Below, in pieces: positions 5,564 to 21,315 of a stretch of DNA of 28,326 nt. The stretch comes from a virus (taxonomy: Duplodnaviria > Caudoviricetes), in the IMG/VR virus record IMGVR_UViG_3300044723_009834, positions 1 through 28,326 of that record; one strand, 5' to 3'. Position 1 is the first letter of the stretch. Every line of letters starts with the position of its first letter. Under the pieces are notes generated by a model that was not told where the DNA came from, did no database searches, and saw only the letters and a list, made by a program, of their open reading frames with translations. A program made the position numbers and the translations under genes.

Positions 5564-5940
5564 TTGATAAATTAATTGAGCCAGTCACACAGATACTGGA
5601 TAAATTTGTTGCTGATAAAGATCTAAAAGCTAAGTTAGATCACGAAATCAAAACTCAATTTCATAAAATTGATCTCGCTCAAATTGAAGTTAATAAAGTA
5701 GAGGCATCACATAGATCTATCTTTGTGGCTGGTTGGAGACCTTGTTGCGGATGGATATGTGCTATTGCACTTGGTTATCATTTTGTTTTACAACCTATCA
5801 TTCTATTTGTTTTGTCTCTTAACAACTTGCAATACGACCTACCAGAGTTTGACATGGGTGCATTGCTGTATGTCTTAGGCGGTATGTTGGGTCTTGGTGG
5901 GTTAAGAAGTTATGAAAAGTCAAAAGGTTTAACAAAGTAA
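5560..5940 (+). CDS. 3TM holin (GTA_holin_3TM-like)
   Basis: FVAGWRP..GWIC motif, C-terminal GMLGLGGLRSYEKSKG. Confidence 0.8.
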   Translation: MIDKLIEPVTQILDKFVADKDLKAKLDHEIKTQFHKIDLAQIEVNKVEASHRSIFVAGWRPCCGWICAIALGYHFVLQPIILFVLSLNNLQYDLPEFDMGALLYVLGGMLGLGGLRSYEKSKGLTK

Positions 5941-11556: not shown

Positions 11557-12092
11557 TGGCTGATCCTATAACCAACCTATTTCAAGGAGCATCTTTGGGC
11601 TTAATGCCACAAACGAGAATGAATTTTGATCTTGATCGTGGAGGATATCAGTTTGTAAACCAAGGTCAGTTTTTTGTAGACCCATATAGAACGGGAGATC
11701 AGGCTGCACAAGAAACCCTAGCAGATTTATATGAAGCAGAATATGCCGATTACTTAAACAGATTTTTTCCAGTACAACAACAGATGATCTCTGAGGTAAC
11801 AGACCAGTTTCCGGGTCTTAGACAGGAAGAAATATCTAGAGCACAACAATCTGTAGCCAAGGCTTATGCAAATATATCTGGACAACAAAGAAGAAGAATG
11901 GGTGGTTTTGGTTTAAGAGAATCAGAAAGTTTTTATAAAGATCTAGAAAGATCACAAACATCAGCAACCGTAGCAGCAAGAAATCTTGCAGCACAAAGAG
12001 CAGATGAAAGAAAAATGGAATTAATGTCTGGAAACATAGGCGGAGCCCTAGGAACCAGAGCAATCGCAACCCAAGGAGGAATAGGTGGCTAG
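11556..12092 (+). CDS. Putative internal virion protein
   Basis: Helical Q/A/R-rich protein, Gly-rich tail, coupled within the ejection operon. Confidence 0.55.
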   Translation: MADPITNLFQGASLGLMPQTRMNFDLDRGGYQFVNQGQFFVDPYRTGDQAAQETLADLYEAEYADYLNRFFPVQQQMISEVTDQFPGLRQEEISRAQQSVAKAYANISGQQRRRMGGFGLRESESFYKDLERSQTSATVAARNLAAQRADERKMELMSGNIGGALGTRAIATQGGIGG

Positions 12093-12576
12093 TTTATTAA
12101 CAACAGGTAGACAGATTAAAGGATCGGCTATGGCTGGTCTTAGTTCGGCAGCAAGATCTGAGGCTCAAACAAACATTGCAGAAGAGCAATTAAAGCAAGC
12201 AAAAGAAGCACAACAGGCTCAATTGCTTGGAACTGGTCTTGGTATTGGTGGTGCATATATGATTACCCAAGGTGCTGGAGGAGCAGCAGCCGCCGCAGGA
12301 GGAGTCCTTGCATCTCCAGTTGCTGGAGGAGCGGCAGGAGCAGCAGCCGCAGCCAACCCAGCAGCAGCAGCAATGGGATTGCAAACCGGAACAGCGGCAG
12401 CAGGAGCGGCTGGAGCAGGAGCTGGAGCTGGAGCGGCAGGAGCAGGAGCTGGAGCGGCAGGAGCAGGAGCTGGAGCGGCAGGAGCTGGAGCAGCCGGTGG
12501 TGCAACTGCATTATTAGCAAATCCTATGACTTGGGCTGTAATAGCTGGATTATATTTACTTAAAAAGGTGTTTTAA
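12085..12576 (+). CDS. Ala/Gly-rich putative ejection (membrane-active) protein
   Basis: GTG start after AGGAGG; long AGAAGAG tract and C-terminal hydrophobic helix (NPMTWAVIAGLYLLKK). Confidence 0.65.
   Translation: MASLLTTGRQIKGSAMAGLSSAARSEAQTNIAEEQLKQAKEAQQAQLLGTGLGIGGAYMITQGAGGAAAAAGGVLASPVAGGAAGAAAAANPAAAAMGLQTGTAAAGAAGAGAGAGAAGAGAGAAGAGAGAAGAGAAGGATALLANPMTWAVIAGLYLLKKVF
12403..12492 (+). repeat. 21-bp tandem repeat (GGAGCTGGAGCGGCAGGAGCA) encoding GAGAAGA
   Basis: Three near-exact copies at 12424-12486 plus degenerate flanks. Confidence 0.85.
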
Positions 12577-14088: not shown

Positions 14089-17000
14089 GTGGCAAAAGAG
14101 TATCAGTTTGGCGTCCCCCTTTTTGATGAAGAAGAGGAATTAGAGTCTTTACAACAACCAGAACCCAAAGAAGAACAATTCAAGTCTTATGAATATGGCG
14201 TATCTGTTCTTGATTCACAAAATAAAAGAGGTCCCTCTTATAAAAAACCATCTGTTGATTTAAAAACAGGAGAACTCTCCGGAGAAATTCCTAAGATCGC
14301 AAAGCCCGGAACGCTACGCAAAGCAATTGATATTGGTGGCGTTGCTTTAAAAATGATACCCAACAATGCATTAAAAATGATTAATGGGTTGCAAGACACA
14401 TATGCTAATGAATTTCTTTCGCAAGATCTAAGCTATGATCCAACCAAGCCACTTGTAGCAACATTGGGTGAGTTTGCTTTAAGCAAAGTTCCCACGATAA
14501 GAGGAGCCGCAGAAAACTTATTAAAAGAAAACGAAAAAGAGTATAAGCAATTAGAAAAAAAATTAAACAAAATATATAAAGACGCAGACTTAAGCGAAAC
14601 CCAGATGGCTGTTGCGTCTGGTCTTTCTAGTTTTGTAACCCAAGCACCTTTTCTTCTCGCAACAGCTGTTACAAGAAATCCAAAATTTGCTTATACGTCT
14701 CTTGGTTATTTTGGGTTGCAAGAAAAGGGCTTATCCTACAAAGAAGCTAGAAAGCAGGGGCTTGACCACAAAACAGCTGTAGCTAATTCAAATCTAAATG
14801 CAATGTTTGAAATTGGAACAGAGCTTATTCCAACAAAAACTTTTACAGATTCAATGCTTAAATATCTTAAGGGTAATGATCGAACAATAAGAGGGTTTTT
14901 AAAAGATGGTGCAACCACCATGATTACAGAAACAGCCTCAGAAAATCTAAACACTTTTTTACAAGAAACTAATAATGCTTTATTTGGCATACAAAATGAG
15001 TTAAGAGTTGCGTGGGATAATCAAGATAACCCACTATACAACGGACCCACTGTACCACAGGTTTTAAAAGATCAAGCCTATCTTACAACCATATCATCCT
15101 TGGTTAGCGGTGGAGCAAACGTAACCCTTCGTGGTGCGGTTCAGTATGCTGAAGATGTAAAGCAAACTCTTAAAACTAAAGATCCTATTGATGCAGAAAA
15201 TATTTTAAATCAACTTAATACTTTAGTTAGAAACAATGAAAGAACTTTTCAGGCAATGGATCTTATGGCAAGAGAGGCATTAGATATAGATTCTATTGAT
15301 GATAGTCAGTTTGATCCTTTAGATTATTTTTCTGAAAATTATATTAAGCTTGACTTAGAACAGCCTAAAGCCGGGAAAGAAAAAGAAGAAAAAACTGTTG
15401 AAAGCTTTAAAGGTCCAGCAATTAAAACTGCTGCTATGAAAGAGTTTGCCCCAACAACAACATCAATTGATGAATCAACAGATCCAAAAAAACAAGAAGA
15501 CATGCAACGTATTATGGATGACATTGCTGGGGATATAGATGTTGTGGGTCCCGTTGATATTAAAACATCAGACTTTGATATATCTCAAGAGCCTCAGCTC
15601 AAAAATATTAAAGACTTTATTGTTGATACAAGGGTTTATTCTGAAGATATGATAGAAAACATTACATCATCGAAAGAAGATTTTGTACAAGAGATGGATA
15701 GATATAGGGACTTAAGCTTACAAGAATCCTTTAATCTTTCTACTACCTTATATAGATTAGAACAGGCTGGCATGCCTCTTAATATTTTAGAAGATTTAGA
15801 TTTTATTGGTGTTTTTGGTGTTAATGAGCTTGGCGGTAGAGATCAATCGTTTAATGTTGCAGAATATCTTGTGGGTGCTAATACGCTTGGTCTAAGTGGG
15901 TTAACAAAAATTAATCGTCTTGTTGCACCCGCAGATAGGGCTTATTTAACTCATGTGATTGCACATGAGCTTGGTCATCATTTAGATTATCGTTATGGCG
16001 AGGTTGTAGATGACAAAAAAGGCGGGTCTGTAATCTTACCCCTTCATTATGATAGTCCGCTTTTTAATATACCGGAATACACAATTAAGTCTGATCCTCT
16101 AGGAGACAACGAACGCAGGGTTAAAATTGGAAAAGATGCAAGATCTCCTGTGCTAGAAATTGTTGAGGGTCAACAAGAGGGTGTCATTATACAAGAAGCC
16201 TTTAATGTATTTCAAAACATGCGTCTTCAAGTTAAGCACATGAGGCAATCAGACGGAAGATATTTTGATGGTCACCTTTTGACTTATCCATTATCTCAAT
16301 TTTCTTCTATGATGTTTGCTCGTGCTAGAGGAGATAGCAATAAATTAATTATTGACAATAATTTACAATTTCTTAAAGGAGAAATTTTTGCACAGATGCA
16401 TTCCTTGTATTACACTAACAGGGAGTTACTGGAGCAGGGTGCACCAGAAACAATAAAACTTATAAAGAGAATTTATGATGCAATTGCAATTGACGGAATT
16501 GGAAATAAAAGCGGCAGACTACTTGCAGCAGTTCTCTCACCCCGTACCAGCAGAAGTCTACAGGTCCCTGCCTCCGACAGCACTGGTCCAACTGATCAAT
16601 CAGTCACTGGAACAGAACCAGCCGGTCAAAGAGTGGGAACAGAGACAGTACCAGCAGACGGGGACCCCAGCAGATTACCAGTACAAGAATCTCAACAATA
16701 TGTAGAGATTGGACCCCTTGTTCTTAAAAAGGACAATACCTATGATGGTGCTCCTAAAAATAAATTAGGTAAATTTAAAAACACACAAAAAGATTTTGAT
16801 AATTTAGCTCAAGAGCTTGTTTCTTTTGCTGAACAAGAAGATCTATCTTTACCAGATCAAAGCAGGGACTGGTATAAAAATGCTTTAGATTCTATTGATG
16901 AGCTAACCCAAGGAGACGCCAAGCTTAAAGAAGATGTCTTGCGGATGTTTGTTATTTACTCATCACAAACACCAGTTGAAACAAACCTTGCATATGTTTT

Positions 17001-20000
17001 AAGGTCTTTAGTTTCTATGGCAAAAGAGGGCGACCCTTTGCCGGGTTTTCAACCAAAAGCTGGAGAGTATGCTAAAACAGCAATAGAGGCTGATGACTTT
17101 GGTCAAAAACTACCCGGTGTTGGTTTTAAATTACAAAGCTTTTACGACAACATGACAGGAGCAAAAACTGATTCGGTGACCATGGATACGTGGATGTTTA
17201 CCATGCTTGGATTTCAAAAAGACCAAACAAGCATTTCAAATCATAGATACGGCACATCTGTTATTCAAGAGGCTACAAGGCTGTATAACGAAAAAAATAA
17301 TGACAACATGACACCAATGCAGCTTCAAGCTGTTCTTTGGACTTATGCTAGAAATAAAAAAATGCAAGAGCAAGGCAAGCCTGCTGAATATATTGGTTAT
17401 GAAACTTATATTGATAAAGCTATGGCTACTGTTACTGGTGAAGTTATACCTAGTACCTCAATACCAGAACTTAAATTTGCAGACAGTTTAGATCCAACAG
17501 CAAAAATGCAGCTTACAAAAGAGCTGCTTGAGATAATCACCACAGAAGAAGGCAAGAATGAAATTATGAACCTTCTTCCCGGCACTGGCTTGTATAAGTT
17601 TTCACATAGTTTTGGTGCTTATGACGGAAAAATAAATCCCAATATAATAAGCAGCTTAGTATTAGAAAAAATAAGTGGATCAAAACAATTTAATAAATTA
17701 GATCTTACTTATGCTGATGATTTTTTACGAGCTTGGGGTTTTGTTTTTAGACAGGATGCAATGCCTTATTTTGTTTCTGATGAGTCAATATCTGATACAG
17801 ACATAAATGATTTATCTAATGAGTCTGTAAATATTGGTTCAGAAGTACAGCTTATAGATACACAAACAAATCAGCCTATTGAAATGACTGATGTATTAAG
17901 AAATCAAATTAATACTGAGTTGGCTAAAGAGGGAATTGATGGGTTTACACAACTAGATGCTGGCACGATTGGGTTAATTAATTTTAAATTTGATAACGCT
18001 ATTATTGAAAACTTTAATGAAAAAATAAAAGATGCTCTATCCCGTGTTAACATAGAAAATGTCAGGGCTGATATTACAGAAAATATAAAGTACAATACAC
18101 AATACCTTACAAATAATTGGGAGGAGAACCCAGATGGAAGTGAATATCTTACAGGAAGACTCGAAAAAGAAAGCATACGAGAGGGGCTTGTACGTCTCAG
18201 GACAAAGGTTGATGAAATCTACACCAAGTACAGAGAAGGAAGATATGACGACGACCCCAGCGGAGGATTCCCTACAACCAAACCAGACTCAACCACAGAG
18301 TTAAAAGAAGAATCCCAACCAGCACAAGAGCAAACACCCCCGCCGCTTAAGCCGGCAGGCATGGCACCGCCCTCAAGACCACCATCAGGTAATGAAACTG
18401 ATATTAATAATCAGTGGACTATGGGCGATGAATCAAATGCTTCTTTATTCTTGCAGAGCTTTAGAGAAAGAATTGTTAATAACTTTGATAGGGTTCTTCA
18501 AATTGAAAACAAGATTGAAGATCAATTTGGTGCTCCGGCTATGCGGGGGAAAAGAGTTACTCAAAAAACAGATCTGCATCATGGCAAAGTTAAATATGGT
18601 CTAGATGAGGCAATGAAAGATGTGGACTCTCTTCTTAAGTTTATTGTAACAAACAAAATAGATCTAAAAGACTTTAATGAATTCTTACAAAACTTACACG
18701 CACCAGAAAGAAATGATTACATAGATACTTTAAGAGAGCCCGGTAAGCCCGGCTCTGTTAAATACAAGGGCAGGGGGTCTGGCATACCAACCGAAATTGC
18801 TTTAGAAAAATTAAGATCTTTTGGTGTTGACATGATCTCTGGAGAGGCAACAGCCATTAATGAGCAAGGGGCAAAATATTTAGCTGCATTTAAAGAATTG
18901 CAAAAATTTATTGAAGGTACGATAAATATTTATGATAAAGAAGGATTGCTTGAAGAGGGCGTATCAGAAGATTGGAGGGGTCGTTATAAATATTATGTGC
19001 CGTTGGTTGGTTTTGCTTCTGATACAAGAGAAGATCAAAGACCATCTGCATCTGGCAAAGGTATGACCATATATGGACCCGAGTTAAAAAAAGCAAAAGG
19101 AAGGGTTTCTATATCTGGTCCTCCGTTTGAGCAAGCAATCATACAAAGACAGAACGCTGTAGTGCGAGCAGAAAAAAACATTGTTGCAAAACAATTTGCA
19201 AATCTTGCTAGAGAATTTCCTAATCCTGAAATGTATGAAGTTATTGAAGACGCTCCACAAATTCAACCAAAACTTACCGACTGGAATCCAGACAAAGGAT
19301 CTTATGTTGGATTTAAAGAAGACGGCAAGATTAAATATGTGCATATCTTTGATGAAAGACTTGCAAGAGCCTTTCAGGGATGGTCAACATCAGACATACA
19401 TGGATTAACAAGAATGGCTTTAGGATTTACAAGATACTTATCTTTAATAAATACTGCTTATAACCCAGAGTTTATGGTAACGAATGCTATGCGAGACATT
19501 CAAACTGGATTTTTTAATTTGCTGGCAGAGCAAGAAATCCCCGGCGGTAGAGCTGAAGGTTTAAAAATTGCAAAACAAGCCTTTAATCCAAAAACTTTAA
19601 CATCGAGAATGAAAGATTTTTACAGGGGGGCTAGAGGTAAAAATATTAAAGATAATGAAATACAAAAAATGTATGACGCTTTTATTAAAGCTGGTGCCCC
19701 AACAGGATATATTGATCAACCCACTATAGAAGATTTAACCAAAAATTTAGATAAACTAATTGCAATGCATCAAGGAAAAGTTGGGAGAAAATTAGCCAGC
19801 ATTTCTTATGAGCCCGTACTGAATCTTATATATGACTCAAATACAGCAATTGAAAATGCTGCAAGGTTTTCTGTCTTTATTGAATCAATTAATGCTCAGG
19901 GCGGTTTAAATAAAGTAGACGAACAAACTATAGAACAAGCCGCAGTGTTAGCCAAAAATTTAACTATAAACTTTAATAGAAAAGGAACTTGGGGACCGGG

Positions 20001-21315
20001 ATTAAATGCAACATATATGTTCTTTAATGCGGGCGTTCAGGGATCTGTAAATTTCTTTAGAGGATTTCTTCCCGGAAAAAGATTTTCTAAAACAAAAGCT
20101 GCCGCAGCATCTGGTATTGTTATGACTGCTTTTGCAAGAACAATGTATAACATGTTAATTTCTGATGAAGACGAAGATGAAACTCTTGTATATTCCAAAA
20201 TACCAAGCTTTGAAAAAGAAAGAAATATGATCTTTTTATTACCCGATGTTGTGGGAATTAAAGATGGAGAATTTAAAGTAGAGAAATTTGGTGCTATTAA
20301 AAAATATTACCAAGGCGACATACCAGTCGCTTTAGCAATACCCTTGCCTTATGGTTACAACGTGTTTGATAACATAGGAAGAATAACAGCGGAAATGTTT
20401 GCACAAAAAATGTTTGATCTTAAGAATCCTGTGTTAACACCATCTAAGGCAGGTATTGAGTTAACGGGTGCTTTTGCGGGCTCATTCTCTCCAATTGGTC
20501 TAGGCTTTACAAACGATGAGGGCATACCGGGCGTTGCAAAAAGATTAGGCAAAACAGCAATACCAACTTATGGCAAACCTTTTTATGAAATTTCTATAAA
20601 TGAAAATTGGTTTGGTGCCCCAATAACAAGAGAACAATTTCCCTTTGGACCACAGCTACCAGAGTCTGGGCTAAAATTTAAAAGCACGTCTGATGCATAT
20701 GTTTGGGTAACAAAAGAATTAAATGAGCTTACTGGTGGCAATGATTATTATTCTGGATGGGGAGATATTCAGCCAAACACATTACAATATATTACAGAAT
20801 TTTTAGGTGGTGGTGCTTTAAGAACAGTAAATAGAACTACTACATTTTTTAAAAATGTTCTTGATGGAAAGCTTGATCAACAAGAGCGGGGAGAAATTCC
20901 TTTTGCAAGAGTGTTTTCCGCAGAACCTCAAGGCTTTGTTAATGGAAGAAAATATTTTGAAAATTCAGTTGAGATTGAAGAGCTGGCAAATGCTTATGCA
21001 AACCTTACAGGAGACGATAGGAAACAATTTAAAAAAGATAAAGGCTGGGATTTAATTAAACTTGGTCAATGGAGAAACGACATGGAGAAGGCTGCTTACA
21101 AAAAAAGCACCGGCATATCATTTAAATCAGAGCTTGCAAAAGCAGAAAATAAACTAAAAGAGATTAGAGAAAAAGAAAAAGCTGCGGAGATTAGATATAA
21201 AGCAAAAGACCCTGAAAAATTTGTCAAACTTATGGACAAGTATGAAGAAGATAAGCAAGAAATATATTTAAAATTCAATAAAATTTATAACAGAACAATT
21301 GAAAAATCTAAATAA
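14089..21315 (+). CDS. Large polyvalent/ejection protein (zincin metallopeptidase-like, HhH-glycosylase-like and LPD38-like regions)
   Basis: 2408 aa, GTG after AAGGAG; HVIAHELGHHLD + GEIFAQ; LPGVGFK...VTMDTWM...QLQAVLW; C-terminal A..AKNLTINFNRKG, YMFFNAGVQG, IPLPYGY, N.NWFGAPI motifs typical of LPD38-bearing proteins. Confidence 0.8.
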   Translation: MAKEYQFGVPLFDEEEELESLQQPEPKEEQFKSYEYGVSVLDSQNKRGPSYKKPSVDLKTGELSGEIPKIAKPGTLRKAIDIGGVALKMIPNNALKMINGLQDTYANEFLSQDLSYDPTKPLVATLGEFALSKVPTIRGAAENLLKENEKEYKQLEKKLNKIYKDADLSETQMAVASGLSSFVTQAPFLLATAVTRNPKFAYTSLGYFGLQEKGLSYKEARKQGLDHKTAVANSNLNAMFEIGTELIPTKTFTDSMLKYLKGNDRTIRGFLKDGATTMITETASENLNTFLQETNNALFGIQNELRVAWDNQDNPLYNGPTVPQVLKDQAYLTTISSLVSGGANVTLRGAVQYAEDVKQTLKTKDPIDAENILNQLNTLVRNNERTFQAMDLMAREALDIDSIDDSQFDPLDYFSENYIKLDLEQPKAGKEKEEKTVESFKGPAIKTAAMKEFAPTTTSIDESTDPKKQEDMQRIMDDIAGDIDVVGPVDIKTSDFDISQEPQLKNIKDFIVDTRVYSEDMIENITSSKEDFVQEMDRYRDLSLQESFNLSTTLYRLEQAGMPLNILEDLDFIGVFGVNELGGRDQSFNVAEYLVGANTLGLSGLTKINRLVAPADRAYLTHVIAHELGHHLDYRYGEVVDDKKGGSVILPLHYDSPLFNIPEYTIKSDPLGDNERRVKIGKDARSPVLEIVEGQQEGVIIQEAFNVFQNMRLQVKHMRQSDGRYFDGHLLTYPLSQFSSMMFARARGDSNKLIIDNNLQFLKGEIFAQMHSLYYTNRELLEQGAPETIKLIKRIYDAIAIDGIGNKSGRLLAAVLSPRTSRSLQVPASDSTGPTDQSVTGTEPAGQRVGTETVPADGDPSRLPVQESQQYVEIGPLVLKKDNTYDGAPKNKLGKFKNTQKDFDNLAQELVSFAEQEDLSLPDQSRDWYKNALDSIDELTQGDAKLKEDVLRMFVIYSSQTPVETNLAYVLRSLVSMAKEGDPLPGFQPKAGEYAKTAIEADDFGQKLPGVGFKLQSFYDNMTGAKTDSVTMDTWMFTMLGFQKDQTSISNHRYGTSVIQEATRLYNEKNNDNMTPMQLQAVLWTYARNKKMQEQGKPAEYIGYETYIDKAMATVTGEVIPSTSIPELKFADSLDPTAKMQLTKELLEIITTEEGKNEIMNLLPGTGLYKFSHSFGAYDGKINPNIISSLVLEKISGSKQFNKLDLTYADDFLRAWGFVFRQDAMPYFVSDESISDTDINDLSNESVNIGSEVQLIDTQTNQPIEMTDVLRNQINTELAKEGIDGFTQLDAGTIGLINFKFDNAIIENFNEKIKDALSRVNIENVRADITENIKYNTQYLTNNWEENPDGSEYLTGRLEKESIREGLVRLRTKVDEIYTKYREGRYDDDPSGGFPTTKPDSTTELKEESQPAQEQTPPPLKPAGMAPPSRPPSGNETDINNQWTMGDESNASLFLQSFRERIVNNFDRVLQIENKIEDQFGAPAMRGKRVTQKTDLHHGKVKYGLDEAMKDVDSLLKFIVTNKIDLKDFNEFLQNLHAPERNDYIDTLREPGKPGSVKYKGRGSGIPTEIALEKLRSFGVDMISGEATAINEQGAKYLAAFKELQKFIEGTINIYDKEGLLEEGVSEDWRGRYKYYVPLVGFASDTREDQRPSASGKGMTIYGPELKKAKGRVSISGPPFEQAIIQRQNAVVRAEKNIVAKQFANLAREFPNPEMYEVIEDAPQIQPKLTDWNPDKGSYVGFKEDGKIKYVHIFDERLARAFQGWSTSDIHGLTRMALGFTRYLSLINTAYNPEFMVTNAMRDIQTGFFNLLAEQEIPGGRAEGLKIAKQAFNPKTLTSRMKDFYRGARGKNIKDNEIQKMYDAFIKAGAPTGYIDQPTIEDLTKNLDKLIAMHQGKVGRKLASISYEPVLNLIYDSNTAIENAARFSVFIESINAQGGLNKVDEQTIEQAAVLAKNLTINFNRKGTWGPGLNATYMFFNAGVQGSVNFFRGFLPGKRFSKTKAAAASGIVMTAFARTMYNMLISDEDEDETLVYSKIPSFEKERNMIFLLPDVVGIKDGEFKVEKFGAIKKYYQGDIPVALAIPLPYGYNVFDNIGRITAEMFAQKMFDLKNPVLTPSKAGIELTGAFAGSFSPIGLGFTNDEGIPGVAKRLGKTAIPTYGKPFYEISINENWFGAPITREQFPFGPQLPESGLKFKSTSDAYVWVTKELNELTGGNDYYSGWGDIQPNTLQYITEFLGGGALRTVNRTTTFFKNVLDGKLDQQERGEIPFARVFSAEPQGFVNGRKYFENSVEIEELANAYANLTGDDRKQFKKDKGWDLIKLGQWRNDMEKAAYKKSTGISFKSELAKAENKLKEIREKEKAAEIRYKAKDPEKFVKLMDKYEEDKQEIYLKFNKIYNRTIEKSK
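16475..16705 (+). CDS. Candidate nested (+1 frame) small protein, possible immunity protein of the metallopeptidase domain
   Basis: 76-aa ORF starting at the end of the HExxH domain, over a low-complexity main-frame linker with ~54% GC (hand count 16501-16680); globular-looking sequence Y...F..P.P....L...I...LE...P. Confidence 0.5.
   Translation: MMQLQLTELEIKAADYLQQFSHPVPAEVYRSLPPTALVQLINQSLEQNQPVKEWEQRQYQQTGTPADYQYKNLNNM
18134..18304 (+). CDS. Candidate nested (+1 frame) 56-aa protein
   Basis: GGAGGAG 7 nt before ATG 18134; MEVNILQEDSKKKAYERGLYVSGQRLMKSTPSTEKEDMTTTPAEDSLQPNQTQPQS; GC-elevated linker region. Confidence 0.35.
   Translation: MEVNILQEDSKKKAYERGLYVSGQRLMKSTPSTEKEDMTTTPAEDSLQPNQTQPQS

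Follow-up and report, generated by a model that had tools for sequence, protein, structure and literature searches.

Does an open reading frame that lies out of frame within a large phage gene, directly behind the peptidase domain, encode a protein of its own, and if so, what would this protein do? The DNA in which this question arises, referred to here as the window, is the entire analysed stretch of 28,326 nucleotides, a linear viral record of 54% completeness whose stretch is contained in sequencing runs of estuary and marine metagenomes. Besides tail genes, internal virion genes and an integrase, it carries one very long gene, organized as follows (coordinates refer to the window):

14089..21315, plus strand: the host gene, encoding a 2408-aa phage polyvalent protein with a zincin peptidase, a DUF7178 domain, an unnamed domain and an LPD38 domain
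15709..16500, plus strand (aa 541-804): zincin metallopeptidase domain, ATLF/M90-like
16855..17358, plus strand: DUF7178 domain; in many relatives, other domains take its place
20191..20904, plus strand: LPD38 domain, a marker of phage-type polyvalent proteins (main text of Iyer et al, 2017; PMC5512222)
21394..22194, minus strand: tyrosine integrase

The host protein is composed of several domains of effector type, among them a zincin MPTase and LPD38, both of which mark phage polyvalent proteins according to the main text of Iyer et al (2017; PMC5512222). From that description, and from the position of the gene after the tail and internal virion genes, we infer that the protein is packaged in the virion and injected. 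The tyrosine integrase suggests a temperate phage.

The elements around the end of the peptidase domain are:

16462..16473, plus strand: purine-rich, Shine-Dalgarno-like stretch preceding the start of the nested gene; a weak signal in the window (-2.9 kcal/mol)
16478..16705, plus strand: the nested gene, in the +1 frame relative to the host gene, 75 aa, a candidate peptidase inhibitor
16510..16700, plus strand: linker in the host frame, produced by reading the nested gene out of frame; its sequence is poorly conserved but kept stop-free

The earlier note had described a 76-aa +1 ORF at 16475-16705. This ORF exists, and 76 residues result from the upstream alternative ATG at 16475, but the homologues align with the second ATG, at 16478, which yields 75 aa. 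Likewise, a linker is indeed present, but it does not begin exactly where the ORF opens: the ORF starts about ten codons earlier, at host codon 797, within what is predicted to be the final peptidase helix (aa 786-801). An independent marine-metagenome contig covers 15700-17200 without gaps, and the nested ORF is therefore no assembly artefact. AlphaFold2 models its product as a small helical protein (pLDDT 76) with helices at residues 7-19, 25-30 and 33-46 followed by a weaker tail. Its core is predicted to be three-helical, and its motif is composed of Y15, F19, H21, P24, P49 and W53. Single-sequence searches with the 76-aa ORF gave no match, no Pfam or PHROG family scored above the cut-off, comparison of the fold with viral models returned no match at E<=0.001, and the matches in the ESM Atlas were confined to unnamed clusters under 0.9.

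Such a frame might be a mere shadow, open by chance over a GC-rich linker. Taken alone, the window leaves room for this reading, since synonymous resampling gives an open +1 frame with P ~0.055, and the host gene contains four other open +1 stretches of 71-99 codons. Because of this value, the evidence for coding rests on relatives. Searches with the peptidase yielded loci L001-L063; 41, including the window, were left after removal of 21 duplicates and two loci without the peptidase end. An ORF of the same family occurs in 40 of these 41 distinct loci, which share the upstream HExxH zincin domain; it lies at the matching place with an ATG in 39, and in L039 (on the same contig as L141) it is found farther down, 259 codons after HExxH. 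The exception is L040, in which an unrelated 57-aa +1 ORF follows the HExxH peptidase.

These relatives separate the two frames clearly. Over the nested DNA, the +1 frame has a dN/dS of 0.32, compared with 1.59 for the host frame; in the flanking peptidase end the relation is reversed (host 0.23, +1 1.09). These values come from 13 disjoint pairs in an alignment-free test anchored on the ATG. Conservation only in the main frame, one of the refuting conditions of the earlier note, is thus not what these loci show; they are conserved in the +1 frame. Among 31 loci under 90% nucleotide identity, nucleotide diversity tracks the +1 codon phase (0.49, 0.39, 0.57) and mean amino-acid identity is 0.37 in +1 compared with 0.25 in the host frame, in an alignment that was built on +1 and is hence biased towards it. 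Invariant +1 residues overlie variable host residues. Stops in the +1 frame of homologues, which the earlier note had named as another refuting condition, are absent from all 2176 codons of the 31 loci; the host frame also has none in 2077 codons, and the +2 frame has 176. Resampling of synonymous codons under a fixed host protein predicts 2.1 open +1 frames where 31 of 31 are found (background windows: 6 of 876). Conversely, given the nested protein, 0.4 of 77 host frames should be open and all 77 are, so that read-through is selected too; these counts are not independent events, because the loci share ancestry. Furthermore, a profile of the small protein retrieves 151 proteins among 1.84 billion representatives, mostly of 50-130 aa. 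Stop counts in homologues and per-frame dN/dS refute the shadow reading, against which the codon-phase diversity, the invariant +1 residues and the 151 profile-matching proteins also speak, and we consider it hardly credible. On these comparative grounds, the nested +1 gene is almost certainly real and under purifying selection.

A further argument for dual coding had been drawn from base composition. The GC figures themselves are exact (98/180 in 16501-16680; 14/60, or 23%, in 16741-16800), but they make weak evidence, because the rise sits in host codon positions 1 and 2, because the 23% comparison window lies below the usual 30-44% of the gene, and because another linker, at 18319-18408, also attains 54%.

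The start region bears on how the small protein is produced. All 77 aligned loci have an ATG here (the nearest ATG being picked by script), usually a few codons past an in-frame stop. The ribosome-binding signal, previously judged weak, is so in the window and stronger in most homologues: anti-Shine-Dalgarno pairing averages -4.93 kcal/mol across the 77 loci, compared with -2.96 in the synonymous null and -1.44 at 5812 other +1 ATGs, and lies below the mean of the null in 65 of the 77. The RNA data consist of one or two short contigs in each of four RNA runs. Programmed frameshifting would provide another route of expression, resulting in a short isoform of the polyprotein that ends in the small domain; in one database protein, P0036, the peptidase end does run into the small domain, which may reflect an assembly indel. 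Against this stand the ATG shared by all aligned loci and its usual position just past a stop, the Shine-Dalgarno-like signal beyond the synonymous null, and the separate genes that encode the relatives behind MuF genes (see below), so that we regard frameshifting as very improbable.

The domain upstream of the nested gene is a zincin metallopeptidase. HExxH is encoded at 15964-15978 and the third-ligand glutamate of an ExFAQ motif at 16381-16383. The active-site residues, comprising the H, E and H of the motif, the following Asp and the ExFAQ Glu, are intact and do not vary across all 77 aligned loci; presence of HExxH was a criterion in choosing these loci. The Pfam family ATLF matches 46 of the 77 family members, the copy in the window not being among them, and, among solved structures, the peptidase profile matches zincins of the lethal-factor/PPEP class. 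Foldseek with a truncated peptidase model gave no match, whereas sequence profiles did.

How tightly is the small gene coupled to this peptidase? Two scans of viral contigs used DNA motifs derived from the small protein alone and were thus blind to the peptidase. All 41 matches of the first, 20 of which lie on contigs already known, are nested in +1 and located 148-189 codons after HExxH. Of the 71 matches from the second, 64 were new. Each of these new matches is nested in +1 and scores at least 34 bits on the family profile, and HExxH lies upstream in 63, the remaining one (L124) being cut by the contig end. The proposal that homologues would be found downstream of HExxH domains is therefore borne out in 41 of 41 and 63 of 64 scan matches. 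Around this pair, 75 non-redundant loci show 12 clusters of domains after the ORF and 16 clusters before the peptidase. As the flanking domains vary and the peptidase and the small gene stay together, the pair appears to move as a cassette. A homologue in a Vibrio phage that has the LPD38/C-terminal region and is devoid of HExxH has no family member either (one case). In cultured phages, there was no match to the peptidase or the small proteins. Weak matches in MN067430 and OR838459 were rejected, one being a tail gene and one an antisense match, and plasmid matches were spurious.

Relatives of the nested protein also exist as separate genes. A motif from a short subgroup of the 151 proteins identified 15 viral loci, 11 of them distinct. 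In 14 of the 15, a free-standing small gene abuts (-16 to +4 nt) a gene of 556-653 aa that ends in an HExxH domain, and Phage_Mu_F is present in ten of ten upstream genes tested. The small proteins with a Y..F...P...I...L...P pattern from behind toxin-bearing phage genes, to which the earlier note likened the ORF, thus exist, free-standing right behind HExxH-bearing MuF genes. At L211, a free-standing small gene follows an upstream gene that is in pieces and ends in a peptidase-like ExFAE tail. Profile-profile alignment of nested and free-standing small proteins gives probabilities of 98.3% and 96.9%; for the two groups of peptidases, aligned in their C-terminal parts, it gives 94.6%, with a match that covers 41 columns only. 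At least 10 bits on the MuF-partner profile are reached by 28 of 77 nested proteins, including that of the window (10.3), versus 0 of 77 reversed sequences. Taken together, these scores point to a remote kinship between the nested proteins and the small MuF partners.

This kinship bears directly on function. According to the main text of Jamet et al (2017; PMC5576092), a small ORF follows 89.4% of MuF toxin genes and is proposed to be an immunity gene, and metallopeptidases account for 20% of MuF toxins; the small ORFs behind MuF peptidases are themselves predicted immunity genes. Since the free-standing relatives come right after the MuF HExxH domain, in the classic toxin-immunity layout, the nested product is likely to be a peptidase inhibitor. 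Overall, the nested gene is conserved, and its product is probably a binding partner and inhibitor of the zinc peptidase that the immediately preceding part of the same host gene encodes. Every linkage and selection result would fit equally well with a helper, such as a chaperone, an activator, a substrate adaptor or a timer of self-cleavage in virion assembly. The main text of Iyer et al (2017; PMC5512222) in fact predicts polyvalent-protein peptidases to be either self-processing or effectors, and favours autoproteolytic processing over toxicity. However, the free-standing relatives are found behind MuF peptidase domains at the C-terminus, where toxin domains and their immunity ORFs have their place, and bacterial orphan copies without a peptidase (see below) would make more sense for an inhibitor than for an activator. 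We therefore consider a helper unlikely.

If the small protein is an inhibitor, ribosomes would initiate internally on the late polyprotein mRNA to produce it, and in the producing cell or a lysogen it would keep the peptidase from acting. Packaging and injection would then carry over the polyprotein but not its inhibitor, so that the peptidase would become active only in the next cell. Such an arrangement could have originated from a peptidase-plus-immunity cassette in which the peptidase once ended at a stop. Reading of the peptidase frame through the immunity gene would then have made the peptidase internal and turned the immunity DNA into a linker. We infer this direction, from free-standing to nested; it suggests a route by which a C-terminal toxin becomes an internal domain with its antidote kept.

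The family extends beyond viruses. Among 19 motif matches in bacterial genomes, 14 were due to chance, one is nested (L173) and four are free-standing without an adjacent peptidase. The latter are orphan copies in marine bacterial genomes:

L177, 3429-3668, minus strand: orphan copy
L187, 3450-3671: orphan copy
L179, 3498-3671: orphan copy
L175: orphan copy

The peptidase family was sought in these four incomplete genomes and not found. L177 and L187 are labelled as K189A clade; judging from sequence, we take the genes beside them to be type I restriction-modification subunits, and a gene near L177 is presumably smpB-like. Such copies are rare, as G001 is the sole strong match among 401 genomes of its order. 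They represent possible orphan immunity. Other members of the family occur in fusions, either with T5orf172 (P0120 and P0135) or as two copies of the domain per protein (P0041, P0049, P0134 and P0137). The orphans and the T5orf172 fusions could also indicate that the small protein has an independent job, for example as a small anti-defence protein, and that its link to the peptidase is merely historical. A weak Pfam score for the Thoeris inhibitor Tad5 (PF25190) points the same way, with a best E of 0.029 in 3 of 32 members, below the cut-off, and none for the protein of the window. Yet the small gene stays at the peptidase end, whether nested or free-standing, while the neighbouring domains change, and the LPD38 relative without HExxH also lacks it (one case). 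An independent job thus appears quite improbable, and inhibition of the peptidase remains our preferred reading.

Phage genes nested within other genes are known: Rz1 lies in Rz, and E of phiX174 lies in D. Both are lysis genes, unlike an inhibitor cassette within the linker of a polyprotein. The MuF toxins (main text of Jamet et al, 2017; PMC5576092) resemble the present system as virion-associated phage metallopeptidases with a small ORF immediately after, and the MuF peptidase loci found here share its small-protein family. In contrast to them, the 2408-aa protein of the window has no Phage_Mu_F domain in a Pfam scan, its peptidase is internal rather than C-terminal, with ~1600 residues coming after it, and the small gene lies wholly inside the host gene in +1. 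The polyvalent proteins (Iyer et al, 2017; PMC5512222) have the same multi-domain composition, with a zincin HExxH..D peptidase and LPD38; the words "overlap," "immunity protein" and "small protein" do not occur in the main text of that paper. Tox-ALFMetallopeptidase and Tox-MPTase1-5 (Zhang et al, 2012; PMC3482391) are of the same zincin fold class, in line with the ATLF matches in 46 of 77 members. The table of that paper pairs Tox-ALF with Imm-SuFu and gives no immunity family for Tox-MPTase1-5; the small protein described here differs in matching no Pfam family above the cut-off. A gene within a gene, leaving the reading frame aside, is also described in a preprint on Synechocystis, in which Slr0489S lies within Slr0489L and offsets the harm caused by it (bioRxiv 10.64898/2025.12.20.695498); the proteins are different.

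In a full-text search covering few subscription journals, no paper came up that describes immunity genes nested in polyvalent-protein genes; the supplements of PMC5512222, PMC5576092 and PMC3482391 may list MuF-associated small ORFs. Because gene callers drop fully nested ORFs, nested genes are largely missing from marine-phage annotations. The locus varies the toxin-immunity layout, in what may possibly be a general design of polyvalent proteins. A dedicated partner would imply that their peptidases need restraint, which bears on the choice between self-processing and attack on the host, and the small protein would be a reagent for testing it. The absence of +1 stops after a domain could also serve as a simple screen for hidden inhibitors and unrecognised effector domains.

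In 20 homologous genes mapped on the window, +1 stops occur at 4.4-12 per 100 codons outside three stretches. These are aa 801-840 (0.00), aa 841-880 (2.5), which contains the tail of the first ORF, and aa 1361-1400 (0.19), which marks a second nested ORF:

17431-18273, plus strand (aa 1115-1395): unnamed third domain, between DUF7178 and the second nested ORF
18134-18304, plus strand: second nested +1 ORF, encoding 56 aa where the unnamed third domain ends; its family is unrelated to the first

All 31 loci with the motif at this domain end are open for at least 63 codons in +1, with an ATG in 30, and 18 of 18 non-redundant loci are open compared with 0.7 expected. In codons 2-27, pN/pS is 0.48 in +1 and 0.75 in the host frame; in codons 28-45 the relation is reversed (0.87 in +1, 0.34 in the host frame). 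By this measure, the first ~27 codons of the second ORF are selected in +1, a weaker case than that for the first ORF. Its profile matches 31 database proteins, several of which have different tails. A suspected kinship with an ORF in L177 and with P0128 and P0181 was unsupported by this profile. The domain itself (aa 1115-1395) has no match in Pfam or the ESM Atlas and is a candidate for an unrecognised effector.

A possible third nested family is represented by L040 (6119-6292), in which a divergent HExxH peptidase is followed by the unrelated 57-aa +1 ORF with a GGA-type upstream signal. A broader view, which we offer tentatively and would not rate as the probable one, holds that polyvalent proteins are chained effector-immunity cassettes in which every immunity gene is read through out of frame, so that unannotated antidote genes appear as "disordered linkers" (two here, a third family in L040), and that the orphan copies of marine bacteria would disarm the injected peptidase.

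The longest of the other open +1 stretches in the host gene (18305-18604, 99 codons) overlies a Pro-rich linker and is likely a shadow, because homologues show a normal stop density there. Elsewhere in the window, positions 12085-12576 contain a Gly/Ala-rich, repetitive, internal-virion-like gene, the GC content of which (57%) is the maximum of the window.
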